In this document: positions 1,059-61,900 of the stretch, piece by piece
Numbering within the stretch: position 1 is the stretch's first letter
How the letters are laid out: the number at the start of each line of letters is the position of its first letter
Source of the DNA: Marsupella aquatica
Taxonomy: Eukaryota > Plantae > Marchantiophyta
Reading direction: 5' to 3'
Length of the DNA stretch: 64,000 bases
NCBI GenBank assembly: GCA_973895155.1
Contig: OZ316893.1
Coordinates: 19,162,857-19,226,856 of the forward strand
Position numbers and translations under genes: made by a program
The notes under the pieces: model-generated
Told to the model about the DNA's origin: nothing
Databases searched by the model: none
What the model saw: the letters and a program-made list of their open reading frames with translations, nothing else

Positions 1059-4000
1059 TTAGCGCACTTGGACTATGCCAGCACTAACAAGCTTTTGTAT
1101 CTTCCCCATCACCATAGGATTCTTCATATGCTCTTGAGCGGACTTGGGATTCTCTTGGAAATCTGTCAAGACCTGTTCAACGCAAAGCACAAACTCCAGC
1201 TTCAATACTCTTAAGGACCTTCACTGTGAGGGTATGCCCATCAGCTACATCAACAGGACTACCGCAAAAGTCAGGTCTAGTACATTACTTCATGGGTGTA
1301 ATCATATAAGATACCGTTCCTAATATTTCAACTTTCGGCCCCAGTCCAGAATCGATATGAAAACTTCACGCAACCAGCAAGTTAAGAATGAGAAGACCTC
1401 AGAATCCAGATGAGCAGCTCATTGTGTCCACAGCGAGGACTGTGAACACAGCAATCCATGGTCAGGATATTACCTGTCTCATGACAGGATCTGATAAAAT
1501 TTGCTGAATTTCTGGGTCTTGCATTGCCTTGGCCTGTACAAAAGACGGCCAAAAATGTCAACAGAGTTAGTACTCCGAAGCACATCATGATTGGATTCAG
1601 CAGGGAAGAAAGCTGATCGGCGCAAGCAAGACCCTAGCTGCTTTTAATCATTTTGGTCAAGAAATAGATCCAAGGATTAAAAAACATTCAACTAGTTTGG
1701 AAAATAAATTTGAAACAAGACAAAAACACTTTTACTCATTTCATTACCAATATTCTCATTTAATCGAGACGTTAGCAACACATTCTCTACTTCTTGAAAC
1801 GCACAAACTTCAGTTCACACCGAGCTCCACTGCTAAAAGTAACTTGAATAGTAGAGAAAGTACCTGTCTCTCCTTCAGGTCTTCAGCACTAATATCGCCT
1901 CTGTTAGTTTTGTTAATTTGCTCTATGCATCTGCCACCCAGCCCCCAAAACACATGTTACTTTACTGAACGCAAAGCAGCATAACGATGCACCTGAACTT
2001 CAATGGAAGTCACCTTTTACTAGAAGTATACCCGTACATGATGTTACTATAACGATAAGAAATTGTTACATTGTGCCTTGAAAATTTTATTCTACTTAAC
2101 TTCAACATGAATCTATGCGCAGAAAACAGTCCAAAGAGATGAAGCGATGTTGGGATGATCAATTGAGCCACCACATTTGATATGCTACTGAGGTTTCATT
2201 CTAAAACAACTACAGAAAATACGTGGTCAAGATTAAAAACACCAACCTGCGTGCACCATCCAGAAGCTCTTGGTTATCCTTCTCGTGAGTCAGTCCAGTC
2301 TGCCATCACAAAGGTCACTATTATTTAGCTGGCTTCCATATCAGTCCCCAATACAGGCCTACGGTGGGAAGAGCTAAAGAAAATATCAGCAGTTGACTTG
2401 TCAATGCACATTTCTTCCAAATTTTGGTTTACGATCATAGATTGAATTAGATAAGCCGGGGAGGTAAAGGGGAGTCCTTTTTCCGTTACTGAAACTACAT
2501 AATACGCACTCTCACCAGAAATCTGATGAAAACATTTATAATGACAAAGGGATGAGTCATAATTTCATGCTGAAGTGGCACGAAAAGTGCAGAAAAACTC
2601 CGCCATGCACAACTAGTTCTAACAGCCGCCAAATCTCACAAGAGTGTGTTTCAAATAAGGAACAGTTACTGACCTGGTATGTCTCTAGAGCCTTATCATA
2701 CTCCTTCATGAAGAACTGCACTGTGCCCTTGCGCGAATACCCTTTAACAAAAGTTGGGTCAATCTCAATACACTTGTCTGCATCTTTCAAACCCTCAGGT
2801 AGTGCTCCAAGCTTCGTGTAGCATGCCGCCCTATTGCTGTAAGCCTTCACATCGCAGCAACAATGTCAGTTAGAATGACCTGTACAGGTCTTGTTTTCAG
2901 CAGTATGCATGCTAGTGAGTGAGAACTCATACCTGCCCAACTCCAAGCGTAAAGACGAAAGGAAAGACAACAAAAGAAACGCACGCAGATGCCCATTTAT
3001 TACCTTGACATCTTTTGGATTCCGTTTGATGGCTTCATTGTAACCTTTGATAGCTTCAGGATACTGGGCTTTCTTGAAAAATTCGTTGCCTGCAAAATGG
3101 CGCATGACAGATCATCAAAAATTATCCTAGGTTCGTTACAACACGGCATTTTGGGCCGTTGAGATACGGTTTAAAATGAGACAACTTTTCCAAAATGACG
3201 ATGTGACAATGCAGCAAGCCACCAATGGTTCACTCTTGCATTCAATCTCAACTAGTCACTGATATCAAGAACACCCAGAATCCAATGATCCATGTGCCAA
3301 CATCGATTACTAAGGGCCGCAAGAAACTCCAGTAAAACCATTCTCATAACATAAGGAGCCAATTTACTGTTTCGACACTTCCATTACTGGCATCAAGGTC
3401 ATCGACCTGAAAGTCCCACTCAGATCTAAAGGGATTGGACGATTCAGGAAAGACCTCCGTAGGATATTGTTGCAAGACAGTAAAAAGCAGTCTGAGAGCA
3501 CAACTTACCTTTTTCCCGCTCTTCATCTGCTACCACTGGATCAAAATATTCCTGTTGCTCCAATTCTTTCTTTGCTCGCTCGGCATCATTCAATCTTTTC
3601 AACGTGTCTGGGTTACGGTGTTCAGTGAGTGCTTTGTTGAAGGCTTCTATAGCGGGTAAGTAATCTTTCGAAATTTTGGCCATTTTGACATAAGCAGTTC
3701 CTTTCCGAGTCAAAGCCCGTGCAATAATCTTGAAATCCGCACGCACTTCTCTGCCTCTCTCAACAGCCTTCTCACAATCATTGATAGCTTCCTCATACTG
3801 CAACCGATGAGCAAAGACATGGTCAGGAATATTTTTCAATTTCCTCCTCCACAGTATACACCTATAGCGCAATGCCTGTTTTAATGGTAGAGGGCTTGAT
3901 CCAGAGAGGACACTCCAAAGGTTCTTTCTCTATCTGCAGTAAGGGCACCGTGGTTCTTGGTTTCCTAAATTAACCTGCCGTTACAGTTCATGTACACATT

Positions 4001-5242
4001 TTTCGATGTAGAAGACCTCGACAAAATGTAGCTCGGACCTAAAGAGTCAAATGTTAGTTCCCCAACCCAGATCGGATCAAACTCTGCATCACATTTCACG
4101 AGGTTCAAGAACGTTCTAGGCTACCATAGTTAAGCTACCAGTCTAATCTGAAGGGATCAAAAGGAGCTTAGGGTTTAGGGTTTAGGGATCCAAAAACCAT
4201 CATACACTTCCATTATTCCAACTCATTCATAAACAGATATTCATTTCCAGCCCGGGAGGATAAACTACGGGGGAGGGCAGAAGGAAGCGCGTCCTACCTG
4301 ACCCATTTCCAGGTAAACAGCCGCTCTGTTAGTTAGGTACGAGATATCCTCGTCATCCAACTCGAGAGCCTTAGTGTAGTGCTCGATTGCTTCCTGGAAC
4401 TGTTTCTTCTTGTAAGTCTGGTTGCCCAACTCCTTCTCCTTGAGTGCCTCAGCCTTCTTGTCCTTCTTTTCTTTCTCTTCACTTGAAATCTCCATTGGCT
4501 CTGGTTCTGGTTCGACTGGAGCTGACTGCGGTTCCCTACTTGATGTCTCTGCTGGCTTTGGCGGGGAAGACCGATCTGTCGTGGCAGGAAAATCATCGGC
4601 AGCAGCACTATCATCATCCCATTTTCCGCTCTCCATATCTTCCTTCGACGGAGTTTGAATATTGACCCCGAGAAGAACGCCCAAAACTTGCATCATCCTC
4701 GGATCACTGATATACCGATTGAGGTTGTTGGGATTTCTTTGCACGTCCTGAAGCATTTTGACGAAATCTGGTTGTGCTAGCAAAGTTCTAGTTCTAGGGT
4801 CTGTCTGAATCTTTGCCCACACCTCAGGGCCCTGAAAAATATTGGCGAATGGCGAACCCCCGGCCCCAATAGGCGGGGCTTTGGCGTTGGCACTGGCCGC
4901 CTGAGCATCCGAGAGTCCTGATTTCAAGGCCTCATTGCTGGGATCAAGCTTCAATCCATCCTTGTAGGCCGTAACAGCATCATCAAACTTGCTGAGGCCC
5001 ACATAGGCAGCCCCGAGCCTACTGTAACCTTTACTCCAGTCCGACTTTAGCTCTACCGTCTTCTTGGCATCAGAGAGGGCCTCAGAATACTTCTGGACAG
5101 ACGCATAAGACGCGGATCGGTTCGAGTAGAGGACATGATTTTCGGGCGCGAGAGATATTGCCGTCGAGAAGTGTTCTATGGCTTCCTCATACCTGCCTGC
5201 TGAAAAAGCTGAGTTTCCTTTCGCTTTCGCATCGTCTGCCAT
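1059..5242 (-). CDS. HOP: Hsp70-Hsp90 organizing protein (HOP/STI1), ~594 aa; exons 5242-4298, 3797-3509, 3089-3004, 2844-2674, 2299-2247, 1930-1864, 1533-1474, 1172-1059
   Basis: TPR1 (MADDAKAKGNSAFSAGRYEEAI..YSNRSA), DP1 (DPRMMQVLGVLLG), TPR2A/2B and DP2 (AMQDPEIQQILSDPVMRQVLTDFQENP..KLVSAGIVQVR*). All introns are GT-AG and phases sum to 1785 nt. Confidence 0.96.
4168..4187. repeat. Interstitial plant telomeric repeat / telo-box cluster in the first coding-region intron of HOP
   Basis: TTAGGG TTTAGGG TTTAGGG read directly. Confidence 0.7.
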
Positions 5243-6781
5243 CGCTGGGCTCCCTTCTACAACTCTTCAATGCTCCCTGCCAACAGCTTATCAAATCAAC
5301 CCATATCCCTAAACTTACGTCGCGATAAGTATAACAGACAAGAACAAACACGAAATTTTTTTAACGGGCACCATCCCGACAAGATGCATAAGTTTGACAG
5401 AATCGTCTAGCACAGAAATATAACAAATCCTCTTCTCTCCAGCTTTCTTAAACAAATCAGGAGACTACTAATTCAGACCAGTATCGGTGATACAAAGAGT
5501 ACCTGTTGTACCTATCCTTAGAAACAACATCCGCTCTGACCTTCAACCCAGCCCCACCCAACTCGAAAACGATCTCACGATGAAAAGCATTTACCAAGCA
5601 GATAACCACATCAAACGCAATTCGCAGTACGGACGCTAACTGTACACGAAGAGGGCTCTGGGTAGAAACAAGTACTATATGGAAAAGAAAAAAACAAATG
5701 CAGGAGAGATGAACGTCCAATCCACTGGCCGAGGAGGAAAACCTTAAATCATGGGATGATGGACACTGCCGGATTCAATATTGATTCAGGACCCAGAGAC
5801 ACTACATACCAGTAGCTCTTTCGAAAAGGAGGTGAAAAATCTCTATCAGAGGTAAAACCCATGCCCAACAATGACCTCTTGGCGACCAGAAGATGCAAAG
5901 GATACATTACTACTCAAAAGATTACAATGGTCTGACTCCTTGACGTCGTCCCTAGGATGGAGAGCTACTGGACAATAGAAACTGGGACTGGACAGTAGTA
6001 ATCTGGGACTGCCTTCTTGTCTACGTAGATTACCGAAAAGGAAGCTCACGTAAGAGCTCCCAAATTGTCATCGCGTAATTTACTTGTTTCCTGAAGAACA
6101 ATGCGAGAAAATAAAATGCTAGTGGAGGACCTCCATCAATAGATTCCGGTTTGTAATACACCATTAATATTTCTTTTCCTGGTAGTAGCGCAGCCTTCTA
6201 CAGAGAATTCCTTCAACCAGAACGCGCAAGATCTAAGAAAGAGCTCCACTCACCTCTCGTTCCCTTTTCCGTTCAACCTTTTCTCTCACCTTCCGCTCAA
6301 CCTTCCGTTCAACCTTTTCCAAGCGGATTTTCGTTTTTTAATTACGCCGACAGGGAAAAAAACAGGAAACCACAACCTTCGTTTCCAAGTCACGGAAGAC
6401 TTTCACACAGGAAAGGGAACTGGGGAGACATCAAAGAAAGCACACAAACGGTTTGAACCACGAAACAAACGAACTCACCAGAACGGAAGCGCGGTCCGCC
6501 AAATTCTCTTCAGCTTAGGGGAAGAAGACAGCCAGATGTGAGCAGCACTGGAGCACCGGCGGGAGCAGCTTCAGCAGCAGGGGAGGAGCGCCGTAAGCCG
6601 GAGGAGAAGGAGGAGACATTTGAAGACGGAAGAGGGAGCCAAACGAATGAAGAGCGAGCCTGGCCGCACGGCAACGGAATCGAATCACGTCTCCCTTTCC
6701 CCTCCTGCTGACGGAATAATAATAATTATGATCTCCGTGAGAGCCCTGAAAAACGGATGCAGATGCCGTTCCAAGCAGCCA

Positions 6782-25857: not shown

Positions 25858-26430
25858 GAACCCCATCCTCTCACCTTTGCCTGCTTTCTGGCTTTTCTTG
25901 CTCTTCTCTTCCTCCCTTGTTGTCTGTCCTGATTATGCTTTTGGGATGTTTGTGTTGCCTTGCACTCTCACCTTCCCTGCTATTTTGTTCCTCTCCTGAC
26001 CCCCATTCTCTCACCTTCCCTGCTCTGTTGTTCCTCTCCTGACCCCATTCTCTCACCTTCCTTGCTCTACTAGGGCATCTCAAACCTTGGCATTGCGGGA
26101 AAAAAATGACGCCCGGAACTATCAGTTTTGGTCACGGTTCAGCAGTGTGTGGACATGAATTTTTTTTGTCCGCCACTTTTTTCCCGGGAATCTGTTGCTG
26201 ACCACAACCGGAGGCAGCAATGCAACGTTTGAGACGCCCTATTGTTACTCTTTTGACCCCCATTCTCTCACCTGCCCTGCTCTATTGTTTCTCTCTAGAC
26301 CCCCATTCTCTCACCTCTCTGCTCTATTGTTCCTCTCTTGACCCCCATTCTCTCACCCTTTCCCTGCTCTTTTGCTCCTCTATATTGTTCCTCTCTTGAC
26401 CCCATTCTCTCACCTTTTCCTTGCTCTTTT
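25858..26430. repeat. CT-rich ~43-bp minisatellite (tgacccccattctctcaccttccctgctctattgttcctctc), interrupted by a MITE
   Basis: Unit repeated several times on both sides of 26071-26241. Confidence 0.8.
26071..26241. mobile_element. ~170-bp MITE, Tourist/Harbinger-like termini
   Basis: TIR (TA)GGGC(A/G)TCTCAAAC at both ends; splits the host repeat gctcta|ttgtt. Confidence 0.7.
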
Positions 26431-26811
26431 GCTACGGACCCCACTAGAGGCCCCTTCCAAAATTCGAGACTCCACAGCTCACCACTTCATCATGACACAC
26501 TGCAAACAGGTACAAATTGGTTTACAACATACAATTACTTCACATTCGTGTTTGCGGCAGGATTTTGGTAAATTGAGGACGCCATGCCGTAAACCTTGAT
26601 GTAAAAATGTTTCAAAAATAACCATTTTATTTACCTTGAGTAACTGACTGTTCAATTAGTAGTGGGCACACCCTCCATTTTATTTACCTCGAGTAACCAG
26701 TTGCCCACCCTTTTTTGTGAATTGTGGTTCAATTCTGTAATTAAATCTTGTTGCCCGAGTAACCGACTGCCCACCCTCATTCTGAATTGTGGTTCAATAT
26801 ATTGAGTAATT

Positions 26812-27143
26812 TGTCACACCATTCTAGGTAGTGTTAGAGTGTATCGTACTATCTCTAGATCCGTATGTTTGGTATGTGTGCTATATGAGCCGATAAGGTT
26901 CCGTCAGGTTTGTGTGAGAGGGTACTTCTCACTTGTGAGGCATTGAAAGGTCATCTTTCAATGTTGAGCCTTGGAGAGAGAGGAGCTTGAGTGGCTATGG
27001 TGGCTGTGAGCTCCGCTTGTGTAACGTGGATTCCTTGAGTAGTGCAAGGTGTGTTGGCTTGACATACGTGTGTGATCGGATCGGTGCGGGATCGATGGGG
27101 TATTGTTGACCGGGATCATTGCGCCGATTGTATGGAGATTACA
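26812..27143 (+). repeat. Terminal repeat A1 (332 bp, TGTCAC...GATTACA)
   Basis: Matches 35816-36143 with ~10 substitutions and one 2-bp indel (counted by eye). Confidence 0.93.
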
Positions 27144-28409
27144 TTGAAAGATCATGAGCTTCAAACTCTGTTGTGCGGACAGAAGCTCAGTCTGAGTTTG
27201 TCGTTGACGGTGACGGTTCGTGGTAGCTCGAATCAATTGGATTTGTGTTTGACGCGGATTCATGTTTCTTGAATCGTTGGTTCTATTGTTTGAGTACTTT
27301 GTTGCTATTCGATCTGGTTCTAGCCAAGCTTGAACGTTGTTGGATCTGGATCTGGTCTAGATCTGGATCTGGATTGAGTCGGAGTCCAGATCTGGATCTG
27401 GAAAGAGGTGGCCGAAGGTTGCTGCTTGTATCGCACTGCTGTTTTGTGGACAGATCTGTTGGAATTTTGAGTGCTCGCGGCATTTTATTGTCAAGGAACG
27501 CTCGCGAAATGTCCCAAAACCGTGCGCAACAGGTTTGCAGAGATCGAGAGCCATCGACGTTGCCATTTTTGTGAAGAAAATCACTGCTTTCGAGTGGCAA
27601 ATGTTGCCATTTCTGAGCCCGACGACTTCTGTTTTGTATACACACAAAATTGTGTGCGCATAAGGCGATGCGTGAGGTCACCCATCCCGAAAGTGCTCCC
27701 AACCGCGAGCGCGAAGTCACCCATCACGAGCACAAGCAGGCGCAAAGTTGAGATCACCCATCCTGGGGCTATTCCGGGTCGTGAGCACGAGGGGAGGCAC
27801 GAGGTCAAGCGCGAGGAGGTCACCCATCCTGGGGCTATTCCCAGCCGCAAGCACTTAACTGACAAGTTCTCATCCCACCTTATGTACACACAAGTTTTTA
27901 CAACTTGTTGTTTAGATTCAAGCGCCAGGGGGCTTTATACACTTTCTGGTTTGCTTAGAGCCTTGTTTCGGGCCAAATTAGAAGCTCTTTAGAGATTTTT
28001 GATAGTTTTGAGTTCATCTAAATACACAGATTGAACCAATTGTGCATGGTTTCTCATCTATAACATTGGGACATCATGAAGCCTATTATGAAGGCCTTTC
28101 ATTGAACATTATGAATATTTGTTTGATCAATGTGTGATCATTCTTGGTGTGGAGAGTTAGTGTTTGACTATTCTTGTTGATTGGATCCTCTCCACACTTG
28201 TTTCCTGTTTGTGCGCCATGTTGGTTCGGTGTGGGCGCTTGATTCCATAGGAGTGATCCGGGTTTGCAATTGGACATTCTAGTGTGCTGTGTATTTCTCT
28301 CCTGGTGATGTTGGAGTGATGCCCAACACACCATGGTGGGTGCTTGTGGTGCTGACAGGGATAGATTGCCCTTAGGGTTAGCACATAGATTAGGTTAGGG
28401 TTGGTCACC

Positions 28410-29700
28410 ATGGATTCTTCTGGTGCTACTGGATTACCCGATGGACGACGGACCGGTTTCACTCGGAGTGGGGCACAGTTTCGGCCAGCGGCATTGGTAG
28501 CAGTCAGCAGTGCAGCTTCAGACAGTGATTCTGATGAGGACTCAATAACCAGTTCTCCTCATCATCAGGTGGTTGCACCTTTCTTGTTGGATATGGACGA
28601 GATATACGGGGCTACAAAGGGCCCACGACGATACTCTGGTGCAGTTGGCACGATTGATCTGGATGACTTCATCTAGGAGTTTGATACGTGGTGCGATATG
28701 CAGACATTGCGTAACGTCACATTATTTACCCCTTTCATGGCATGGAAGGGATTATTTCAGCATTTGGAGGGGCCACCCATGGATGACTACCATGAGTTTC
28801 GGAAGGCTCATTTGGTTGAGATTGAAGCATGGAGGCAGCATTGGTCGCCTAATTACGTGTCCATCACCTATGGCACTAGTGCGGCTGCCCAACCCATTGC
28901 CACAGCTGTTGCTTCTTCTAGCAACACTAGCCAGAGTGGCACACCATCCACCACCAGCATCCACCGCTACTCCTGCCGGTGTGATTGTGACAGGAACTGG
29001 AGTTGCACCAACATTTAACCCTATGGTGGAATTCTTTGAGGTACTGAAGCAGAACTATCAGGGTGTAAGAACTGATAAATTGAAGGGTCTTCAGGAGTTC
29101 CAGCGCAAGATTGGAGAGAGTCTACATGAGGCATACACTCGTATGCGCAGATTGATCATTGTCACCAAGGGAGTGACAGAGGCTCAGGCAGTCCAGTTTT
29201 GGTATGCAATTCTGGATAGAGAATTGCGACGTAGAGTGAGAGATATCACTCTGCTTAGGGATGCAGATCCCACATTAGCAGTTGTTTTTACACTTTCTGA
29301 GCGCATTGAGCTCAATATGGTGAATGAGAAGGTGATGACTTCCGGATTTGCCAAGGAAGCACCAAAGGCTGCATCCACATCCACATCACAGCCTACTGCA
29401 CGGAAGAGCCAGAGGGAGAAGCCTACTGCACGAGAGTCTACCAGCCAGAGACCTGTGCCCTCTTATGCTGGATAACAGTCAGGATGTTGGACCTATGGTG
29501 GGGATCATGCACAGAGATATTGCCCAGATCATAGAGGATCAGTTGGAGCATCAGCACCTTATCAGCGACAATGTGATCACTGTGGAGCTCCTGGACACAC
29601 CAAGGATAGGTGTTTCTCACTCCATCCTGAGTTACAAAGAGGAGGATCCCATACACATGATCAGGGAAGAGGAGGTAGAGGCGGTGGACGTGGTCGTGGC
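28410..29700 (+). pseudogene. Retrotransposon gag with two zinc knuckles (disrupted)
   Basis: ATG at 28410 (MDSSGATG); capsid-like FQRKIGESLHEAYTRMRRL; knuckles CWTYGGDHAQRYC (degenerate) and CDHCGAPGHTKDRC at ~29485-29613; stops at 28674 and 29473; frameshift near 28960. Confidence 0.8.
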
Positions 29701-30419
29701 ATGCCACATGTAGGGAGACAGGGAGGTGACGCTGCCCCTACTGTAACCATAGATCCAAAGGATGCTAAGATTGCTCAATTGGAGCAGCAGCTAACTGCCA
29801 TGGCTAGTTCCCAGGTGAGACCTACTTCTGGTGATGAGGCATCAACATCCTATGGACCTTCCACATCCCATGGTCCTTCCACATCTTATGGAGCTGATGG
29901 AGACCTTGCCACCATGGGATTCATGTGTGGCACTGCACATATTGATGCATCAACAACTTTGACACGTGGGGCAACCGAAGCTCTTGAGCCCCGAGGAGCA
30001 TTAGTGAAGTTAGATCCACAAAGGGGGAATGCACGTCGGCAGACAAAGCTTCCTTAGTCTTTTACATTGTCAGAGACAGTTCAGATTGCATCTATGAACC
30101 CGGTTTGGACAAACCCTGATGTGGGTAAGTTGGCAGAATCAGGTAGTGATGCAGTAGGGATGACAGGTACCTTGCTGGGGGCGGCTACTGCCATGGTATG
30201 CACCCCATTATTTTCAGCGACAGACATGCTGAACTTGGGAGTTGGTCCTGCAGAAGTGTTCAGATTGGCAGCTACACTCTGTGAGGACACTCCAGTGGTT
30301 GCTTCCCATGCAGAAGCAACTTGCAGTGTTGATGTAGTGAAGACCATGCCACCTACTGCTACTAGTGAGACATGGCATGCAGCAGCAGTGAGGTTGGTGG
30401 ATTTACCAGTACGCCCTGC

Positions 30420-30850
30420 ATTTGAGAGGACTAGGTTTAAACCTAGTGTTGTATCATTGGATAATCGAAGTGGTATCTTTCGATTAGTTGGGCCTTCTGG
30501 AGCAGTATACCAGCCAGAGAGGGTGTTACTAGATACTGGTGCTCAGCCCTTGATGTTGGGAAAGTCTGTCATACATGGATTGGGATTGCGTCCAAAGGAT
30601 TTGGAGGATTGTCCCTTTCCCATTCAAACTTCATTGGGGGGACCTACACCTACACAGCACATTACCAGGAGACCTCTTGATTTGAGGATTCAGGAAGGTC
30701 ATACCACAGATAGCTCACAGATATAGGCGCGAGCTATTCTGACTAAGGTAGAGTCATATGATGTGTTGGTGGGATGTACAGTGCTCTACCCCATGGGATT
30801 TATTCTTGATTTTTGGGAGGAATCAGTGTCATATAGACCTGATTGGCAGT
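30420..30850 (+). pseudogene. Retroviral-type aspartic protease domain
   Basis: RVLLDTGAQPLMLG active-site motif; downstream YDVLVGCTVL flap-end motif; in-frame TAG at 30724. Confidence 0.8.
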
Positions 30851-31239
30851 CAAAAGATGCTCGATTGAGAAACTTGCCAGTGAGATTTAGTGGACCAATG
30901 GGAGGCCCTAAATCCACACCATTGTCTTTGGCAACATTCAGTGGTCTAATTACTGGATTTGATGATTTGATTGAGGGTAATGCGCATGCAGCAGATGTTC
31001 CACCATTGGAGGAGTCTCATAAGGAGCACATCATGCGAGGATTACCTATTGCCAGTGTTGTGCCACCAGTATGGGGCACTGCACAGGCCTTGCCACAGAC
31101 AGCAGCACGATTGGTACATGATGCATGGCGTCATGCTTTTACACCACAGTCAGGAGCAGAGCAGCCTCTTGCAGATGGACCTGTGACTCTTTCACCATTG
31201 GATACCACTCCTATTGCTTGGCAGTATCCACCGGAGGGT

Positions 31240-32200
31240 ATTTGTTTGTTGGATCTTTTTGGTGGGATTAGCACTGGATTGGCTGTTGTTCTTCAGGCAG
31301 GAATTCCTGTGCATCGTTATTTGTATGTGGAGTCAGATGAGACAGCACGAAGGGTCTCATTGTGACATGTGGCTATGTTGGTGGATAGATATCCACAATT
31401 GCTGCCAGTGGATGCTGTTCGTGGTTATCAGCATGCACTACCTACTGATATTTCATTGCTGGGGGCAGATCATCTGCATCGTGTTGGCCCCATTGATTTG
31501 GTGATTGTTGGTTGGCCATGTCAGGGCGAATCTAGAGCTGGCGTTGGGCATATACTTCATGATCCACGCTCTGCATTGTTTTGGGAGATGTTACGGGTGC
31601 TGCATCATCTCCAGCTACATCAGACACAGTCTCCAGCATACATTTTGGAGAATGTGCCATTGTTAGGTGATGATCGTAGTCGGATTGTTGCCAATGGTCA
31701 CCAGGTGAGGTCTTGGATTGGACCTGCTGTGTTATTGGATGCTGCACGTGTGGGTTCTCATGCACATCGTCCACGCTTGTGGTGGACTAATTTGATCCCA
31801 TGTGAGGTGCTGAAGCGCGCATTTGACAGCATTTCACGCTCACCAGCCTTAGTGTTGGATGATATTTTGGATCTAGGGCATCGTGCACAGGGTGTGACCC
31901 AACCTGATAGACCTCCATTGGCAATGGTCAATGCAGTTTGATGCCCACGTTGTGCATTACCCACTCTTGTAAGCCACTCTGCTTCATATGCATTCAGAGC
32001 AGGTGGCCCTGGACTTGTGTGGGACACAGCTCTCTAGCAGTTAGCGGAACCTACTGCTGATGAGAGAGAGCGTGCTATGGGATTTTTGACTGGCACCACT
32101 GCAGTTGCCTCTATGTAAGAGGGTTTGCGGCGCCAGGTTCTTGGTCAAGCAATGGACCTGAATTGTTTGACTTGGATTATCAGCTTGGGAGTAGCTGAAC
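31240..32200 (+). pseudogene. C5-cytosine DNA methyltransferase domain (DNMT3-like) embedded in pol
   Basis: Motif I LDLFGGISTG, II YVESD, IV GWPCQG (31510-31527), DPRSALF, VI ENV (31648), VIII HRPRLWWTN, IX ERERAMGF (32062), X RRQVLGQAM (32128). Same reading frame as protease and RT start; in-frame stops at 31363, 31939, 32035, 32116. Confidence 0.9.
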
Positions 32201-32457
32201 AGTTGCGGATGCGCTCTGCTAGAATTACTAATTATCCCTTGGTGAGCTTGCGGTCCACTGAGACAGTATTGACCACAGCTGGGGGCGAGCAGACAGTCCA
32301 TGGACCTATGGCAGGATTGGCCAAGGCTGGACAGATTGTTGAGCAGGAAGGGACTGCTCAATCTATTGCTAAATAGCAATCATCGGCTATCTCTTCTACC
32401 CTACAAAGAGATATTAGGGATTTGGTGGAGAGTTGGGAACCATAGCTTGGCCCTAAG

Positions 32458-33860
32458 TTGACAGGGGAGGAGAGACGTCGCATGCATCGATTCCTGAAGA
32501 GTTATTGGAATTGTTTTGCATTTAGCATGAAAGATTTGGGGACATTAAAGGGTCCTGGTATTCAGATTGAATTGGCTAGTGATGCGCCAATCTTTCGTAG
32601 GCCATACCGTTACAATGACATGGAGAGAGCTCTGATTCAAAGCAGAACTCAAGATTTGTTGGAGGCTAGATTGGTGGAGATTTCATATGGGGAGTATGCA
32701 TCTGCCACAGTGATGCCAGCCAAGAAGGATGTGCATGGCAATTACATAGATAGGCGCATGTGTGGTGATTACAGACCCATTAATCGCCAGACAAATCTGA
32801 TAGATATGCCATGCCCACACCTGAGGAGATCTTTGATGTTGTGGGGCATGCAAAGGTTTTCAGTTCATTGGATCTGAGGGCAGGGTACCATCAGCTTCCA
32901 ATTAGGCATGCTGACAGGTCTAAGACAGCATTCTGGGGGATTGATTCTTATGGCAAAGATCGTTTGTATCAGTGGTTATTCTTACCATTTGGGTTGAAGA
33001 ATGCACTAGCTGAGTTCCAAAGAGTCATGGATCGAATCCTTGCAGGTTTGGATTTTGTCAGATGTTATATTGATGATATTTTGGTCTATTCTTCTATTGT
33101 GGAAGAACATCAGCAGCACTTGCAGACTGTGTTGGAGAGATTGAGAGCACATGGGTTGAAGCTCCATCCTAGCAAGTGTAAGTTCTTCCAAGACCAGATT
33201 GAGTATTTGGGCCACACTATATACCCAGGGGGATTGGGTGTACAGCAGACTAAAGTGGAGGCCATTACACAGATTCCTTGTCCTACTGATGTGAGAAAAG
33301 TTCATGCATTCTTGGGATTGGCGAGCTACTACAGGAGGTATGTTAAAGGATTTAGCCAGCTTGCTAAACCTTTGACCATACTCACTAAGTTGGATCAGGA
33401 ATGGATTTGGGGTGATGACCAGGAGCATGCCTTTCAGGAGTTGAAGCAAAGATTGGCATCATCCCCTATTTTGAGAAGACCCATTTCAGGCAGACCATTT
33501 CAGCTACACACTGATGGAGTGGAGTAGGACTTGGAACAGTGCTGACTCAGAAGGATGATGAGGGGAATGAGTTTGTTGTGGCTTATGCCAGTAGATCAAA
33601 CAATTCAGTAGAGGCTAAGTATAGCTCTTATGAGGGAGAGTGTTTGGCAGCAGTGTGGGCTGTTGCACACTTTTGTTGCTACTTGTTTGGTAACCTTTTC
33701 ACCTTGATCACTGATCATCAGCCTCTTAAGTGGTTAATGGAGTCTGACAAGCTTACAGGGAAGCTTGCACGATGGGCATTGTTGTTACAGGAGTATGATT
33801 TCCAGGTGGTGCATAGGCCTGGAAAAGTGAACTTGGATGCAGATGGATTAAGCCGCAATC
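32458..33860 (+). pseudogene. Reverse transcriptase + RNase H (Ty3/gypsy type), frameshifted
   Basis: RMCGDYRPIN, LDLRAGYHQ, LPFGLKNA, YIDD, FLGLASYYRRYV, LHTD, VAYASR, EGECLAAVWAV, TDHQPL, DADGLSR. Confidence 0.95.
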
Positions 33861-34219
33861 CATGTACCAGTCAGCAGGATGAGACTGGAGCCAGATGGCA
33901 TGATGAGTCAGATAAGAAGATGGTGCCAGGATGGCATGCATCTGCCTTTCTTTGTTGGGTGCCAGCATACAGTGGATCTGTGGACTCTACCTCATTGGAT
34001 GGAGTGGATGATGAGTCTTCAGATGTGGATGTTGGTGAGGTAACTTCTGGACAGCAAGATATTCACAATGATGTGAGAGTGTTGGAATATCTGTGCAGTG
34101 GTTCTATTGTTGGCAGTGTTGATGTCAAAGAACGTGACAAGGTTGTACAAAGAGCCAAGAGGTTTCGATGGGAGGGAAACCATCTTTTGAGAGTACTGCA
34201 TGATGGTAGGGTGTTGGTG

Positions 34220-35503
34220 GTACCAAAACCATCACAACGAGTACATTTGGTGCGACATGCACACGAGGAGTTGGGTCACTTTAGTGTGAAGCACACTTAT
34301 AGCTTGCTGCAGACACAGTATTGGTGGCGTGGTATGCACACTCATGTCCAGCAGTTGATAGCTAAGTGTGTGGTATGCGATAGAGTGAGAGCATCATTTA
34401 ATGCTCCCACTCCCCAGTTGCACCCGTTACCGATCATGGGTTTGGGATATCGTTGGAGTTTGGATTTTGCTGGTCCATTACCTCTTACCCAATGCCATAA
34501 TCGGTATGTTTTGGTCATGGTGGAGCACTCCCCAAGTGGATTGAGCTAGTGGCGTTGCCAGATAAAGCCAATGGAGGAGTTGCTGCTACATTTTTGGATC
34601 GCGTACTCAATCATTTTGGAGCACGAAGCTGAGGTGTTGACTGATCAGGGAACTGAGTTCCGTGGAGAGTTTGAGAGTTTGTGTGAGTTACAAGCTTTGA
34701 TTGATCATCGTACTACCTCTCGTGATCATCCTGAGGCAGATGGATTAGCTGAGAGAGTTGTGCAAACTGTGAAGAGAGGATTGCGTAAGTATGGCTTGCA
34801 GGTTGGTCATCTGGGAGATTGGGATCTCCAGCTACCTTGGTTAGCTATGGGCTACCGTTTCAGTCGGCAAGCATCACTTGCATCATTCTCACCTTACTTT
34901 TTGCTCTATGGTAGAGAGCCAGATTTGCCAGCAGCTATTCGTCGTGATGCTGCACCAATTGTGAACTTGGATGATCCTGATGTTTGGGTCAAGGTGTGTT
35001 CAGAGAGAGCACGGATATTTCAGAGAGTGATACCCATGGCTTTTGACAACCTTGCCATTGCCCAACATCGTGATACTTTGAGGTATGCCACTATTCGTGG
35101 AGGAGGTTACCGTGCAAGCATTCGACGATTTTATCCTGGTGATTATGTTTATTTGCAGCAGACAGCACCCACAACACTTGATGTGACCGCAGGCCGGACA
35201 ATCTTACGTGTGCGTGAAGTGTTGCCTTCTGGTATCCTGATGTTGGAGGGACGCGATGATATGGTTTGGAAGGATCATGTGCGCAACTGTGCACCATGTC
35301 ACCTTCCCAACATTGATGGTACAGTAGATCCAAGCTTGGCACATGTTCGTGCTGGCTTGAAATGTATGTTGTGTGGATCTGCTCAGGGAGCAGCTACTAT
35401 GTTGATTTGTGATAAGTGTTCTAGAGGATGGCACATGTCATGTTTGACACCACCATTGCAGGTGATTCCTAGTGGATCATGGTTGTGTCTTCAGTGTCGG
35501 TGA
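34220..35503 (+). pseudogene. Integrase (H2C2 + DDE core) with C-terminal PHD finger (35363-35497)
   Basis: HAHEELGH..CVVC; WSLDFAGP; LTDQGTEF; DGLAERVVQT; C4HC3 CMLC..ICDKCSRGWHMSCLTPPLQVIPSGSWLCLQC. Confidence 0.92.
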
Positions 35504-35677
35504 AGCCGACTAGTTATCATTTGTGTTCTCTTGGCAGATATGGATTGCAGGTAGGTGATCGATGGGGCTCACTTGCACCCGGCCTCCTGATCTTCACACC
35601 TAAAAAGGTGTATATCAACCTTGTAGAACTCATGACTAGCTAGAGTTAGGGGACCTTACTCCCAGCTAGGGGGCGAT

Positions 35678-35813
35678 TGTGGGTTTTGGACATGTGTGGA
35701 CATGAGTTCCACTTGTATTCCATTCTCTTGTGTTTGTGATGTGGCAGTGTGACTATGTGTGGATGTATGTGACAAGCGATGTATGTTGTGTAGCGATGTG
35801 TATGCGCACTACA
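35678..35813 (+). repeat. Terminal repeat B1 (136 bp, TGTGGG...CTACA), preceded by PPT agggggcga (35668-35676)
   Basis: Identical to 36145-36280 except for one base near the end. Confidence 0.93.
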
Positions 35814-35815
35814 GC

Positions 35816-36280
35816 TGTCACACCATTCTAGGTAGTGTTAGAGTGTATCGTACTATCTAGATCCGTATGTTTGGTATGTATGCTATATGAGCTAATAAGG
35901 TTCCGTCAGGTTTGTGTGAGAGGGTACTTCTCACTTGTGAGGCATTGAAAGGTCATCTTTCAATGTTGAGCCTTGGAGAGAGAGGAGCTTGAGTGGCTAT
36001 GGTGGTTGTGAGCTCCGCTTGTGTAACGTGGATTCCTTGAGTAGTGCAAGGTGCGTTGGCTTGACATACGTGTGTGATCGGATCGGTGTGGGATCAATGG
36101 GGTATTGTTGACCGAGATCGTTGTGCCGATTGTATGGAGATTATTGTGGGTTTTGGACATGTGTGGACATGAGTTCCACTTGTATTCCATTCTCTTGTGT
36201 TTGTGATGTGGCAGTGTGACTATGTGTGGATGTATGTGACAAGCGATGTATGTTGTGTAGCGATGTGTATGCGCACGACA
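35816..36280 (+). repeat. Terminal repeats A2 (35816-36143) + B2 (36145-36280)
   Basis: Direct copies of A1 and B1. Confidence 0.93.
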
Positions 36281-37714
36281 AATTAAATCTCTCTCCGCAA
36301 GCTTTGCAACTTGAATACTACTAGTAAACATCAGCATCAACATTAGTAACTTCCCAATTTCATGGTTTTGATAGGAAGGTCCTGCACCTAAGCACACCAA
36401 CTAGGTGAGCTATGTGAGTTCTGAGAAATTATGGATCCAAAGCTCCAAATCTTAATCCTTTTTGTACAATGAAATACAATTTGCTGAGATGGGAGATTTC
36501 CTGAGCAGGCATCTGAAATGGTCCCTGGAACTTTCATGAGCGGGCCTAGTAGGAGAAGTCCCTCGACAAATACTGTCGTTGTTGAGATGAGGACCACCAC
36601 TGAGCAGATGGCAGCGTGCACACCTATTGACATCTTCCCTTGTGTCAATTGATCAAGCGGGCCGATATTGCTACTGTCCCTGGATCATCACTATTCGTAA
36701 CAAATGCTAGTCTGAGCAAGGACCTGGACCAGGCAGGAACTTCAGATAATAATGAATTGATTGTTGTTCAAATCAATCTTCTTGTGCCCATGTAAATGGT
36801 CAATTTCAAAGTGAAGCAACACAACATGGCAGTTACGAATCACGTTACTGCAGCGGCAGAAGGTAACCGGGAAAATAGCAACCTGCAATGGCTTCCTTAA
36901 CAAACTAAGAGACTGAAGTGCTTGAATTTTGTAACAGTCTAAATATCTTCAACTCATCCTCAGATTACTAGCATTGGTCGAGTCACGAATCCTAAGGACT
37001 GACTCCCTCCGTGTTTTGTCAGAGAGTCCAACTGATGCTTTTCAAGTGCACAGATCGTTCTTACAAAATTTATCTTCAAAGAGACATCAGCTCGGCCCAA
37101 ACAATATGCTTGATAGGATATGATCTGAGTCATCACCGTTTGGACATAATGATTAACCCTTGAAGAAATAAATGATATACTCCAAATGTCATTGACTCAT
37201 TTGTCATGATGGCAGGTCTCATACTCATCAAAGATTCTGTTGCGATATGCTGCACTACAAAGGTTATCAATTCAAACAGCATGGGATGGAGGTCAGATGA
37301 TGCGCACGTAATCTCAAATTGAAAGAGGGGTTGGAATCAAATATCCAAAAGTAGATTTCGCATGATACACAACAAATGAAGTGTCCTCAAATTGAAGAGA
37401 AGAATCAAGGTGGATGGGAACTGAAATTGAGGAACCACTGTGCATATTGAACCAACGGCAGACCTCAGGACATCATCGTGCAGTCAACTCTCTAGATGAT
37501 TGTTTGAATTTTGTCAGTGGAGCCCACAACTTTGAAACAATTGCCATGGTGGGATGGGTCCATATTTGGCAGTGAAGTGTCGCGGAATCTTTGTTGGATG
37601 AATTTGAACGATGAGCCAAGTGTTGTGAATTGTCGCTGAAAGCTGGTTGAAAGTTCTAAGTCCGCTGGAATTCAATGATGCACGAGCATGCTTGAAATAT
37701 GGGAGAATACTGAA

Positions 37715-37796: not shown

Positions 37797-38689
37797 GTAA
37801 CATAATGTGGACTAACATTTCTTTCAGCATTTGTCTCTACTATACTGCATCACTATACCGCTCAGGAAAGGATCCAAATAGGAGGAGCGAGGTGGGAAAG
37901 GAAAGGTTTGTAGGTCCGACTTGACATTGGAAATGAATCCGGCGCCTTTCGTTGTAGCTCAAACGATTCTCAAGATCATTCTGCCAGGTGGAGATAGACT
38001 ACAGCATAGCTCTGCTTTGCAAAACTTGTGAAATTAGATTTCTTACAAACTGGCAGAACCTCTCTCAAAAGAATGAGATGTTGTATATAAATCAATTACC
38101 TAGTTGGTAATTGATTTATATACGCTCGATTGACCCACTTGAGAGTAGTGGACATACATTTATGGAAATGGTTGTGCAGGACTCAAAGGCTCGCCCATAA
38201 CGCAAGATAGTGTTGTTTAAAGTTTGCATAGATGAGCGGGGTGACTCCACCTGAAATCTTGCCATAGCTTTCATGATCAATGGAGACAAGGGGGCTTTCT
38301 GGAGAGTAGCATTCCTGGGATACCAAGGCACGCTGTACGACAGGAAGGGTCGCCATTACTTCAAAGACTTTAATTCGTGACACCATTGATCTCATATTCG
38401 TAGACAACCAATCCTACTACTAAGCCCCAACTTTATGTATGTTGCTGCCAATGAACATGATGCTGGTGCTGGAATCATGGCTGAATTGGATTTCTAATTG
38501 TAATTTTCATGGTCGTCGTGCAGACTTGTTACTTGGATTTAGTCTTGACTTCATTTGGATCGATAACAACTCAAAAGAGAGCAGTGAAAAGTGACATCTC
38601 TGGTTACTCATTTGTGGATGGTGTCGTGAACGGAACTGGGAAAAGTTACTTGGAAAGAGCATAGGGGGCATACTCAAGAGTCGTGTTCT

Positions 38690-38895
38690 ATTGTTCCTTT
38701 CTTGACCCCCCATTCTCTCACCTTCCCTGCTCTTTTGTTCCTCTCTTGACCCCCATTCTGCTCACCCTGGCCCCGCTTTCCCTCTTTTTGCTTCCTTCGT
38801 TGACCCTCCTTGGCTCCCTTCCTCTTGTCTTCCTCCCTTGACCCCCATTCTCTCTCGCGTTGGCAGTCACTCCATTGACGCCCATTCTCTCACGT
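38690..38895. repeat. Second array of the CT-rich tgacccccattctctcacc minisatellite
   Basis: Same unit as 25858-26430. Confidence 0.75.
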
Positions 38896-39683
38896 TGGCC
38901 GTCCCTCCCTTGACCCCAGTCCCTAGCCGTGGCCCTCCTCCGTCTCTCCTTCCCAGCCCTTCTCTGCCCTTGCCCCTGCCCCTGCCCCTGAGTACGCGCT
39001 GCTGCGCTGCTGCTCTGCTATGTTTGCTCGCTCTGTTTGCTCTCGTCTTCGTCGGCTGCTTCTTTCTTTGTGCCGCAATTTTAGAGTAGACAAAGAGTGC
39101 ATTCATTCCTCCCTCCGCGCTCCCTCCCTCACGCTGCTGCTTTGCGTGCACACTCTTTCCTCTTCTCTAGAATAGAAGCCCTCACAGAGTCTGTTTGTTC
39201 CAGCGGCAGGCAAGGACGAGCGCCTATCGATATACAACAATTTGCGAGAGCTGCGGACAGAGGAAACGCAGGACGGAAGGGAGGCAGCGGGGCCTTTCCT
39301 TTCCTTTCCTTTCCTTTCCTTTGCGTTGCTAGGCCAGGCTCGCACGCAGTCGACCATTTTGCTCTGGCAATTCCGCGGGCTTGTGCAGGTGGAAGATGAA
39401 GCCGTGTAGTCCCGATTGCAAGAAGCTGGTAGTAGTGAATGTGTGACAGCCGCTCGAGGCGGAGGCGGAGGTTAAGATTGAGAGACAGAGAACCAGGCAC
39501 AAGAGTTGCCAATTTGCTTGGATTCGTATTTTGTTGATTAGGTCTGTCTGGTCTGGTCTGGTGTACGAAACTGGACGAAGATTATTAGGTTTTAAATCGT
39601 CAGAAAGGAAGACCAAGGGCGAATCTGAGCGAGCCAGGCTCATCAAACTTTCTTTCTTCGGTGGTCCTCATTTGAAGATCGGA

Positions 39684-48660: not shown

Positions 48661-50088
48661 ATGGAGGAGACGAAGAGGAGGATATGTGGAGATGTGCTGG
48701 TGGTTCCAATTGGAATGAGCGGGCACCTTAATCCCATGATGTACGTCGTCAAAGAGTTGCTGAAACGTGGCCTGACTGTCACCATGATGCTCTCTGACGA
48801 CGAGCTCTTGCTCATGAAGTCACACATCGACGTCAAGGACAACCCAAATTTTCACTTGGAGCTGGTAGCGTCTAGGACGAAAATGGGAGGCAAACTTGGC
48901 ATGGAGGTACAAACGCTGAATTTTGAGTTTGTTTGCGAGCCTTTCCTGAATCGTGTCCTGGCAGAGCAGCAGGCTGGTGGAGAAGGACCCAGGTGTATGA
49001 TTGTAGATCAGTTCATGATATGGAGTCACAGCTGGGCATCTAAACTATGCATTCCCAGATTTGTGTGCATAGTTTCACCGGCAACATACGGATATGCGAT
49101 GTACAATCATTCAGCTAATATAGCGAACGGGCTGTTACAGAGTAAGGAGGAGGACCCACTTCTAAATTTGCCTGGTATCCCACCCGTTAGTTTGGGTGAC
49201 CTCACAAGATCGGCCAAACATAGCTCCAAGTTGCTCACCAGCAATGGGGACAAGTTTGATGAAACGGAAGGCCTGCTTATGAACACGTTCTACGACCTGG
49301 AAGCTCCAGCCATCGACGCATTCAGTGCTCAAATCAAGAGCAAGGGAGGAAAAGGGCCAAAATTGCTTCCGATTGGCCCCATGCTCCCTGCTGAGTTTTT
49401 CAGTGAGGGTACATATCAAGGCGTAGCTAGTGATTCAGAGTGCATTCGGTGGCTTGATATTCGTCCTGCATCGTCAGTTGTCTATATCGCGTTTGGCAGT
49501 ATGGCAAATCTATCTCCACCTCAAATCCTGGAGCTTGCTAAGGGTCTGGAGGCCAGCAGCGAATCCTTCCTGTGGGTACTTCTTGTCCAGGGACCTCGGT
49601 ATAGGAATGTGGATGTCTCAACTCTCCTGCCACCTGGTTTCCAAGAACGAACTAAGGACCGAGGATTGGTCTATCCGGAGTTTGCTCCACAGCTTCAGGT
49701 TTTATCACATCCTGCAACTGGCGGCTTTTTAACTCACTGTGGTTGGAACTCTTCTGTAGAGAGTATTGCCAAGGGTGTTCCTATGATCGGATGGCCAATG
49801 GCAGCGGAGCAAAGGCTTTGTTGCAGGGTCCTTGTGGATCAAGCTAAGGTCGCCATAGATATTAGGCCTGGACGTAACGGATCATCTGACTTAGTGACAA
49901 GTCCAGAGGTGGCATCTGCTCTGAAGTGTCTGATGAGAGAGAAACAAGGCCAGGAGCTCAAGAAGAGAAGTTTGGAGCTACAGAGTCGAGCGAAAGCAGC
50001 TATGGCACCTGGTGGATCTTCCGTCAAGAACTTCAACACGTTGGTGGAAATTATCCGAAGTAGAGACAGCAGAAATCGAGCACATTGA
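48661..50088 (+). CDS. Family-1 UDP-glycosyltransferase, intronless, 475 aa
   Basis: N-terminal GHLNP (catalytic His), NTFYDLE, VVYIAFGS, PSPG box FAPQLQVLSHPATGGFLTHCGWNSSVESIAKGVPMIGWPMAAEQ, C-terminal GGSS; ATG in gccATGG context. Confidence 0.93.
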   Translation: MEETKRRICGDVLVVPIGMSGHLNPMMYVVKELLKRGLTVTMMLSDDELLLMKSHIDVKDNPNFHLELVASRTKMGGKLGMEVQTLNFEFVCEPFLNRVLAEQQAGGEGPRCMIVDQFMIWSHSWASKLCIPRFVCIVSPATYGYAMYNHSANIANGLLQSKEEDPLLNLPGIPPVSLGDLTRSAKHSSKLLTSNGDKFDETEGLLMNTFYDLEAPAIDAFSAQIKSKGGKGPKLLPIGPMLPAEFFSEGTYQGVASDSECIRWLDIRPASSVVYIAFGSMANLSPPQILELAKGLEASSESFLWVLLVQGPRYRNVDVSTLLPPGFQERTKDRGLVYPEFAPQLQVLSHPATGGFLTHCGWNSSVESIAKGVPMIGWPMAAEQRLCCRVLVDQAKVAIDIRPGRNGSSDLVTSPEVASALKCLMREKQGQELKKRSLELQSRAKAAMAPGGSSVKNFNTLVEIIRSRDSRNRAH

Positions 50089-58900: not shown

Positions 58901-61900
58901 TTACTCCGCAGAATGATTCAACGAGGCATTTGCGTGAGAATTCAGTTCCTCCCTGGAGAAGTGCACATCAAGTGGTGGAGGGAAGCCACTTAGTAACAAC
59001 CTAGAGTCCTCATTGTCCAACGGAGCTTCACGTTTTTTCATGTTTCGCTTGATATGAGGATCTACTTCAACTCCCTCCTGCACTGCACCCATTTGCCGGA
59101 ACTTTGCCACCCGTTGATTCATGAGGGTTTTTGGATCGAGTTTAAGGAGTTCCTGCAGCAAAATCAAAGATCAGGTACAGCGGCACGAATCATCTTTCTT
59201 AACCTGGAAATCTGACGATTCTTGAAGTCCACGTTATTTGACACTGAGCTTGAAACGATTTCACTTCTTAAACATGGGAATTTAAATTCATTCACTTACT
59301 TTTAAGTACTTCACGATAGTTTTCTTGATGGTTTGCGATGTCAGTAATGGATCAGCATGGGCACCACCAAGAGGCTCCTGAACAAAAAAAGACCACCATT
59401 TAAACAATACGCCTTGGCCATGCAGTGACGCGCACCAAAGTCCAGTGTTGAATTCAAAGCCTCTAAACAACACATCAAATAAACGATGGAATCAAGTTCA
59501 ACATGAGACTTGGGTAGGTAAAGCAGAGAAGTATGGTTGAACTCTGCTCTAAGAGCTCATTCATGCAAAGGTTCCCAGCACGGATTCCAGACTGAGACTA
59601 GAGCTTACCGGAATAACGTCATCCACAACATTTAACTCTACGAGCTCTTTTCCCGTTATTCGCAAGGCTTCAGTTGCCTGCAAAACCATAAGACCCAATT
59701 AGCAAACCTCCCATGACACCCGATTCAGGTCCAGGTGCCAACCTTGCCTTCCAGAATACGTCTAGTAACCTTCCCTAACGCACCTTAGGGGCAGCAGCTG
59801 CAGTCTTCCAGAGAATCGCGGCACAAGCTTCTGGACTGCAGAAAGACAAAACAGCAATCCCTTCAACGTAAGAAACTTTGACAATTGCCTGAAAGATCCC
59901 CATCTTCACAACGATGGGTTAACACTTTCGCTTCCCACAATGTCTGCCAATTGTTACTCTGATGTTCGGATTCGAAAATCTACTCGGCTTTGTTGGCTAT
60001 ACTATATATCGAGCCCTTTTGAGTAGAAAGCTAAGGTACTAATGCACTAGATTCTTCTCGAAAATACAGAATAGATTCCTACTTTAACGGCCATGATCCC
60101 TATCCAAGCCTCTTTCAAGGAATACATCAAGGAAATTCGATTCAGAATATTAAAAATGCACATTTTCTTTCATGATACACAGATGACACTAGCTTGGCCC
60201 TAGATGAAGTTCAAGTCAGTGTACGAAGGACTTTTTCATCTCAAATGACTCTTTTGTAAGCACAAACACAATCTGTGGGTGTACCACGCCACCGACAATT
60301 TCGGAAAACTATATTGACAACGCTTACATTTCTTTCCTTTATGAGAAAGAAGTCAACAACAGAAAAAATACCTTGCAACGTAATAAACTGCATTCTCGAG
60401 CATAAGCATCTTGTCACAGCAACCGATAGCCAACGCACCACCAGAACCACCTTCTCCGATGACAGTGGTGATGATCGGAACAGAAAGGCCGAACATCTCC
60501 CTTAAATTGAATGCAATTGCTTCTCCCTGACAGAGAATGGACGGAGAATCAGAGTCGATGACCTTCCCTCTAATATCATGGACATATTAAATCCGGTGCA
60601 AGTGATTGTTTCTACTCCGCTACTGTAGTCGAGTGGAAATCCAGGAAGAAAGTAAATCCACACACCTGGCCCAGTTCTTCAGCTTTGATACCAGCATAGG
60701 CACCAGGCGTATCGATGAACGTTAAGATGGGGAATCCGTGGTGATCCGCATGTCTCATCATTCGCAAAGCCTTCCTATAGCTGCAAATTCCGCAAATTTT
60801 TGGTTAGTTTACGAACGAGCAACAGAGAACCAACATGGACGATAAGGAAATAAATCCAGGATTCACCATATGACATGAAGTAGAGGCTATATGACATGAT
60901 GGTGAACAGATCGGCATGGTCAGAAACTATACCCGTTTGGTGTAGGCATGGCAAAGTTGCGGTAAATGTTTTCCTTTGTGTTTCGACCTTTCTGATGGCC
61001 CATGAACATGAAGCTCATGCCTTCCATCTTCCCAATGCCACATACTAGAGCTGGATCATCGTACCCTGCTCGGTCACCGTGAAGCTCCACCCACTGAAAC
61101 AAGTAATTGCAAGTACAACGGGGGTTGAAAGGTTAAAACCCCGACGGCGAATTCAGCAATCTTAGAATCAGACAAACCCGATGCAGTTTCCCAGGAATTA
61201 ATTCCATGTCTTGCTAACCTTATCAGTCATGTTGAGCACGTGGTCGAGAAATGTCGGCCGATTTGGATGTCGGGCAACACTCAGTCTTTGAACTGGAGTC
61301 AAGTGTAAATACAGATCGCGGCGAACCTATAAATAAAATGGGCACACATTCCGAGAAAGTGTTAATTTTCAGACAGAAACGTGAAAGATGGACTAGACTG
61401 GAATCAAATCAAATTTATCGATTGTGCTCTGCACAGCAAGATCATCGAGAACCCATCGTCATGTGTAAGTTCTGTAGCTTGGAACGGCGTGACCACCAAT
61501 GCGCAACATCGACGGTCAACACTTCTCAAAGAAAGAATTACCATTACCGACATGTTAATTAGGTTATCTCAGCTGTGAGAGGTCATATACCTGGTCGTAC
61601 TTCTGCTCGAGTTCCTTGATTTGCTCACTGAAGTCCATGCCAGTCTTGTTTGCAAGCTCTCTGACCTGCGAAGGAACAACAGAAAGTTTCCGTCACTGCA
61701 ATGAATGACGTGACATATGCAATCCGTCTCATACAATCATCATCGACGCCACCCAAACCGGAGCAGAGGACGAAGCGCTGCTGTAAACCACAAGAAAGCG
61801 TTTGCGTGGCTGGCTATTACGACTATCTATCTATCTTGCTCAACCAAACTGACCCAAATGGCGATGCAATGGATCTACAGCATTGCAGTGGACCGCACCG

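Follow-up and report, generated by a model that had tools for sequence, protein, structure and literature searches.

Split terminal repeats on a Ty3/gypsy element

We analyzed a 64,000-nucleotide stretch of the liverwort Marsupella aquatica (GCA_973895155.1, contig OZ316893.1, positions 19,162,857 to 19,226,856), hereafter called the window, and in it a 9.5-kb Ty3/gypsy retrotransposon with split terminal repeats. A preliminary description had claimed that repeats in the order A-internal-B-A-B frame an element encoding a DDE integrase. All four repeats were found where it had placed them, with slightly shifted edges: A ends at 27140 and 36142, and the starts of B move 2 bp upstream, to 35676 and 36143. 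A1 (26812-27140, 329 bp) begins with TGTC and stands at the 5' end. B1 (35676-35813, 138 bp), A2 (35816-36142, 327 bp) and B2 (36143-36280, 138 bp), the last terminating in GACA, form the 3' end. These repeats, and all further features of the element for which a strand applies, are on the forward strand. A1 and A2 are 96% identical over 330 bp, and B1 and B2 show a single difference in 138 bp. The two divergences (10/327 and 1/138) do not differ significantly (Fisher p 0.19). No further copy of A or B was found elsewhere in the window.

Comparison of the ends confirmed the TGTC...GACA termini and the AATT target-site duplication (TSD), with the 4 bp seen on both sides (26808-26811 and 36281-36284); a 5-bp TSD was tried and does not fit. 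As also proposed earlier, removal of the element gives back GTAATTAAATCT, which is identical to the adjacent host repeat unit at 26737-26748, and B2 is therefore part of the insertion. A host minisatellite family, with units of 42-43 bp, flanks the insertion on both sides (25942-26433 and 38686-38930).

Directly behind A1, the sequence at 27141-27152 is the exact reverse complement (12/12) of 26953-26964 within A. None of 100 control 12-mers scored above 9/12, and fold prediction also pairs the two segments (z -2.2). This looks like a self-priming primer-binding site (PBS) of the Tf1 and Tj1 kind, in which the 12-nt primer sequence at 26953-26964 would be the transcript 5' end and the PBS would set the right end of the complementary DNA (cDNA) at 27140. 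Since 27141-27152 is the PBS, A1 was taken to end at 27140. A polypurine tract (PPT), AGGGGG plus CG (35668-35675), precedes B1 and is predicted to set the left cDNA end at 35676; this motif also precedes B1 in relatives. Because B follows the PPT and A precedes the PBS, we read the true long terminal repeat (LTR) as B-GC-A, of which B1 would be the upstream and A1 the downstream part.

Two junctions at the 3' end are of particular concern here. At the A2-B2 join (36142/36143, within 36136-36150), which is the predicted circle junction, the PBS-defined end is fused to the PPT-defined end with nothing gained or lost. The earlier claim that A had lost its terminal CA at this join did not hold, because the CA belongs to the overlooked priming site at 27141-27152; the fusion is exact. 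A join through microhomology (GATT) was also tried and does not fit. The B1-A2 junction is a palindromic sequence, TACAGCTGTC in the window (35810-35819), and is predicted to be an internal attachment site of the integrase. As a separate observation, the C>T and G>A changes that set the repeats apart from the family lie mostly in A2, with few in A1, which suggests heavier methylation of the 3' repeat. This bias may be relevant to the choice of the palindrome that is cut, or to the methyltransferase that the element encodes.

The coding region is a gag-pol remnant with several stops and frameshifts (28549-35503). It contains a weakly supported aspartic protease region (30058-30723, DTG at 30532; PF13650, E 8e-4, under the curated cut-off) and the N-terminal part of a C5 cytosine methyltransferase domain, interrupted by a stop (31252-31938, PCQ at 31516; PF00145, E 3.7e-9). 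Reverse transcriptase (RT), with YIDD at 33066, and RNase H follow (32446-33800; PF00078, E 3e-31; PF17917, E 4e-30). The DDE integrase (34229-35300) was recognized by PF17921 and motifs, namely an H2C2 finger, D 34463, D 34643 and E 34751, and ends in a C-terminal PHD finger (35363-35500; PF00628, E 2e-10). Its region is 68% identical to P0008, a protein of Coleochaete scutata whose core matches PF00665 (rve). No tyrosine recombinase was matched in Pfam at E<=0.1 among 53 stop-to-stop frames of at least 55 aa, in a copy that is decayed and has an integrase. The domain order of protease, RT, RNase H and integrase, the type of RT and the DDE integrase are those of Ty3/gypsy elements. So are the PBS after the 5' repeat, the PPT before the 3' repeat, the TG...CA termini and a TSD within the 4-6 bp of the group. 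One identical direct repeat per end is not found; the element has A at the 5' end and B-A-B at the 3' end. It is dead, a decayed copy of an abundant Ty3/gypsy retrotransposon of the moss or liverwort type.

The 5' leader of the element is long and contains a TGGATC hexamer array and three 39-bp repeats, at 27341-27402 and 27674-27854. Host genes in the window encode an STI1/HOP co-chaperone (4265-5266, reverse strand) and a UDP-glycosyltransferase (48661-50088, forward strand). A third gene (61823-62440, reverse strand), without a Pfam match, resembles plastid acetyl-CoA carboxylase alpha by eye.

The permuted layout and its junctions among relatives

Among the matches listed, the nearest named proteins, at 74-79% RT identity, came from two liverworts, Calypogeia fissa and Marchantia polymorpha. 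Sphagnum fallax and C. scutata (P0008) provided further named relatives, and no Klebsormidium-named protein was among the matches listed. An RT tree of 46 rows, midpoint-rooted and leaving out the references Tcn1, Phygy and Klebsormidium, placed the window element, its named relatives including P0008, and 11 metagenome loci in one 30-row clade (99/97). The seed-plant Ty3/gypsy rows formed a separate clade. One member of the lineage, P0152 (cluster of P0012), carries a cyanobacterial label in a public database, which is probably due to bin contamination. No relatives were found among viral contigs.

For the family of the window element, four runs from two organisms and two studies gave 949-4794 contigs each, which were aligned to the 3' region, and 24 of 636 rows of loose contig ends were listed. 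Among these rows, loose ends lay behind B in 18, 34 and 32 contigs (X1-X3; agreement 0.35-0.40) and before A in 14 contigs (X1; agreement 0.41). Such mixed flanks would be expected of termini lying in varied host DNA. Loose ends before B, again among the rows listed (17 and 38 contigs), showed an agreement of 0.57-0.59 and an A-like sequence.

We then considered the best 80 of 136 integrase relatives in metagenomes (44-79% integrase identity). The 3' end was B-A-B at 39 of these loci (2 with a duplicated B), a full B alone at 15 and a truncated B at 10; one was cut by the contig end and 15 had no repeat. None of the 80 had a conventional LTR pair, and a full A followed by host DNA was not seen among the loci examined. 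By script, the 39 B-A-B loci fall into 18 sites; inspection by eye gives 16 (L059 is truncated, and L062 has the same flank as L056). For the B-only class, the script counts 9 sites; one of these (L076/L077) runs on into a truncated A, leaving 8. At 16 versus 8, B-A-B and B-only sites do not depart from a 1:1 ratio (p 0.15). Eight distinct 5' ends begin with A (L008, L010, L016, L020, the L027 group, L068, L072 and L076), and B preceded A at 0/8. All three complete A-internal-B-A-B copies carry a 4-bp TSD (AATT in the window, CATA in L008 and CATA in L068). In the window element, B1 and B2 have a copy-specific variant in common (G at 35759 and 36226, where about 99% of X1 has other letters). 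The B1/B2 transversion distance was 0.029 within copies versus 0.073 between copies. Taken together, the sequences indicate that the permuted A-internal-B-A-B layout is lineage-wide. The outcome named beforehand as refuting integration from a two-LTR circle, mostly conventional copies or a one-off event, did not occur in the relatives or in the four runs.

Some metagenome loci deserve mention on their own account. L027, L037, L064, L078 and four more share a 5' flank and are diverged copies of one old insertion, in which another sequence interrupts B at about 58 bp; this insertion was probably carried by another repeat. Diverged elements with the same 3' flank were also found (the L014 and L034 groups; L036/L046; L043/L071) and are, judging by these flanks, orthologous or duplicated insertions. 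In L048 (4477-4709), a tandem duplication with a period of 117 bp affects the PPT and the start of B; the B-A-B end that follows is otherwise normal. In L011 (5880-5911), telomere-like TTTAGGG repeats lie directly 5' of B1, where the spacer and PPT would normally be.

The A and B repeats of the window family and of the metagenome family do not align with each other, and the B-A junction is the sole sequence that the two have in common. Window B1 ends in TACA. Most of the depth in the four runs has a G at 35810 (X1: 173410/180756), and the junction of the family is therefore a perfect palindrome, GACAGCTGTC. GACA-NN-TGTC, scored at the best of 24 offsets chosen per site, fits 17/17 B-A junctions examined, 16 of them with C>T or G>A changes alone. 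The spacers (AC 7, AT 7, GT 2, GC 1) can each be derived from GC by C>T/G>A. Allowing for methylation decay, GACA-GC-TGTC thus appears to have been kept at all 17.

The A-B join was similarly constant. It consists of the PBS-defined and the PPT-defined end at 15/16 metagenome sites, the remaining one (L040) being unanchored, and neither inserted primer or PPT sequence nor any deletion was seen at the 15 anchored sites. The letters of primer and PBS differ between the families, and complementarity is kept nevertheless (12/12 in the window, L010 and L016; 11/12 in L008).

A proposed route through joined cDNA ends, and its alternatives

We consider it probable that this lineage joins the ends of its reverse transcript and that the DDE integrase then cuts the palindrome inside the LTR. 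With B-GC-A as the presumed true LTR, the transcript would begin at 26953 and, by analogy with Tf1/Tj1, prime itself on 27141-27152. Ordinary reverse transcription would yield a linear BA-internal-BA molecule, the ends of which would lack the TG...CA attachment site. Its two blunt ends would be joined exactly, in a two-LTR circle or a head-to-tail dimer, giving the join seen at A2-B2. The integrase would then cut GACA^GC^TGTC after CA on each strand, leaving CA-3'OH ends with 2-nt overhangs, and strand transfer would drop the GC and duplicate 4 bp, as seen in the product. The central idea of the preliminary description, a BA-internal-BA molecule circularized and reopened at the B-A palindrome, fits every test that we ran, but as a mechanism it is deduced from anatomy. 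In the foamy virus, where the circle junction is a palindrome, integrase is reported to cut each strand of it after CA, and 36/40 junctions were exact (PMC1180852).

Several points weigh against this route. The circle, the cDNA ends, the transcript and the cleavage are all deduced from sequence, and none was directly observed. A symmetric circle has two identical palindromes, and A-B-A-internal-B copies would therefore be expected. They occurred at 0/8 distinct 5' ends, with a chance of about 0.04 if a third of the copies were of this kind, and the model does not account for this apparent preference for one of the two identical palindromes. The only testable A-internal-B copy ending in B alone, L010, has no TSD. 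B2 had its own B1 as nearest neighbor in only 5/15 old copies. Self-priming is clear in only 4/9 of the 5' ends tested, and the other five, which are decayed, reach 8-10/12 at unrelated positions. In addition, a 1-nt overlap at the A-B join is indistinguishable from a blunt join, and the 24/636 rows of loose ends listed leave room for rare conventional ends in the window family. The B-only ends may come from one-LTR circles, from double cutting of the linear form or from B1xB2 recombination.

The strongest competitor, although in our opinion unlikely, does without a free covalent circle: the integrase would act first on the linear cDNA, at its left palindrome, and the B piece set free would be joined to the right end while still within the complex; alternatively, RT would jump from the end of A to the start of B. 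Under such a route, neither the exact join nor the product would be any different, and the favored palindrome could be accounted for, given A-B-A at 0/8 of the 5' ends. If both palindromes of the linear form were cut, A-internal-B would result, and eight sites do end in B alone; these ends are, however, also accounted for by one-LTR circles or B1xB2 recombination. There is no direct evidence for the circle-free route. Two-LTR circles formed by exact blunt ligation have been documented (36/40; PMC1180852).

Less probable still is replication of the PAT/Ngaro type, in which the RNA would extend into B2, the A-B join would be inherited from the RNA, annealed repeats would form the circle and the integrase would stand in for the tyrosine recombinase. 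The repeat order is indeed identical (PMC6681497), near-identical A1/A2 and B1/B2 pairs are predicted here too, and the A-B join is very constant among copies. However, this leaves unexplained why, in two families that cannot be aligned, the join should coincide precisely with the edges of the PBS and the PPT. Priming right after A1 would moreover set the minus-strand end at A, so that B2 should not be copyable from the RNA, and RT and integrase are of the Ty3/gypsy type. Finally, a single aberrant insertion, a nested insertion or an assembly artefact within a conventional family is highly improbable. The flank junctions of the window locus are without read confirmation, but the layout recurs with TSDs at 16-18 sites in contigs of other genomes, is seen in four runs of the window family and is in print for Klebsormidium.

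On the reading that cDNA ends are joined and the LTR is then cut internally, we favor, with a little less confidence, a wider scenario. Within the streptophytes (charophytes, liverworts, mosses), an old Ty3/gypsy lineage would have shifted its integrase attachment site away from the cDNA ends to a place inside the LTR, so that end-joined circles would be obligatory for integration. While keeping retroviral chemistry, the lineage would have arrived convergently at the PAT/Ngaro layout, and the methyltransferase that it encodes may have a part in marking the palindrome to be cut. Two-LTR circles are usually seen as dead ends or, at most, as a reserve (PMC4372172). If our reading is true, a high-copy natural lineage would show a DDE integrase running on circles as its normal route, and every insertion of the lineage would record an end-joining followed by an internal cleavage. 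It would also show how an ordinary LTR pair can give rise to split direct repeats. The B-A palindrome provides a defined 10-bp candidate substrate for the integrase. LTR finders that require paired LTRs, the criterion in PMC6317226, would miss or mis-bound such elements in bryophyte genomes.

Comparison with known systems

The permuted layout on a Gypsy element was already known, because the legend of Fig. 4c in de Mendoza et al. 2018 (PMC5890265) ascribes to KnitGypsy-Dnmt3 of Klebsormidium nitens a DIRS repeat structure with Gypsy domains; this is the only source of it that we found in the literature searched. The earlier view that split repeats on gypsy may represent an undescribed route could thus be retained only for the mechanism, for which the same literature, with most subscription papers, Repbase reports and figures outside its coverage, contained no published account. 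Ty3/gypsy replication would here take a form of its own, with a layout partly published and a mechanism that is testable and, in the literature searched, unpublished. Compared by description, KnitGypsy-Dnmt3 and the window element both have Gypsy domains, a C5 cytosine methyltransferase within pol and DIRS-type repeats (A-coding-B-A-B in PMC5890265). The text examined treats the layout in one legend sentence, gives neither a TSD nor a priming site, does not analyze the junctions and proposes no mechanism; the words 'PHD' and 'liverwort' are absent from it.

PAT, Ngaro and VIPER of the DIRS order have the same split direct repeats A1, B1, A2 and B2. Unlike them, the window element has a DDE integrase, a protease, a PPT, a PBS and a 4-bp TSD, and no match to a tyrosine recombinase in 53 reading frames. 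Like the window element, Tf1, Tj1 and Tcn1 have a PBS beside the 5' repeat that is complementary to a sequence inside the repeat, but they are described as chromoviruses with ordinary LTR pairs (PMC4600332, PMC6317226). The window lineage differs from them in its PHD finger, its methyltransferase, its permuted repeats and an RT clade of its own (in the tree without Tcn1). Of the chromovirus features, it thus has the self-priming PBS, as judged by complementarity, and a PHD finger instead of the chromodomain after the integrase. Nor does it resemble Phygy, a short element with an NCGN target preference, since it is 9.5 kb long and the TSDs are AATT, CATA and CATA.

A close parallel to the proposed route is offered by the integrases of foamy virus and HIV-1, for which cutting of a palindrome after CA on both strands gives integration-ready ends (PMC1180852, PMC4372172). 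In these viruses, the palindrome is the end-to-end junction, the product is a normal provirus and the reaction is a side route; HIV-1 two-LTR circles have been argued to serve as a reserve (PMC4372172). In the window lineage, by contrast, the palindrome would be cut inside the LTR, the product would be permuted and the route would be obligatory.

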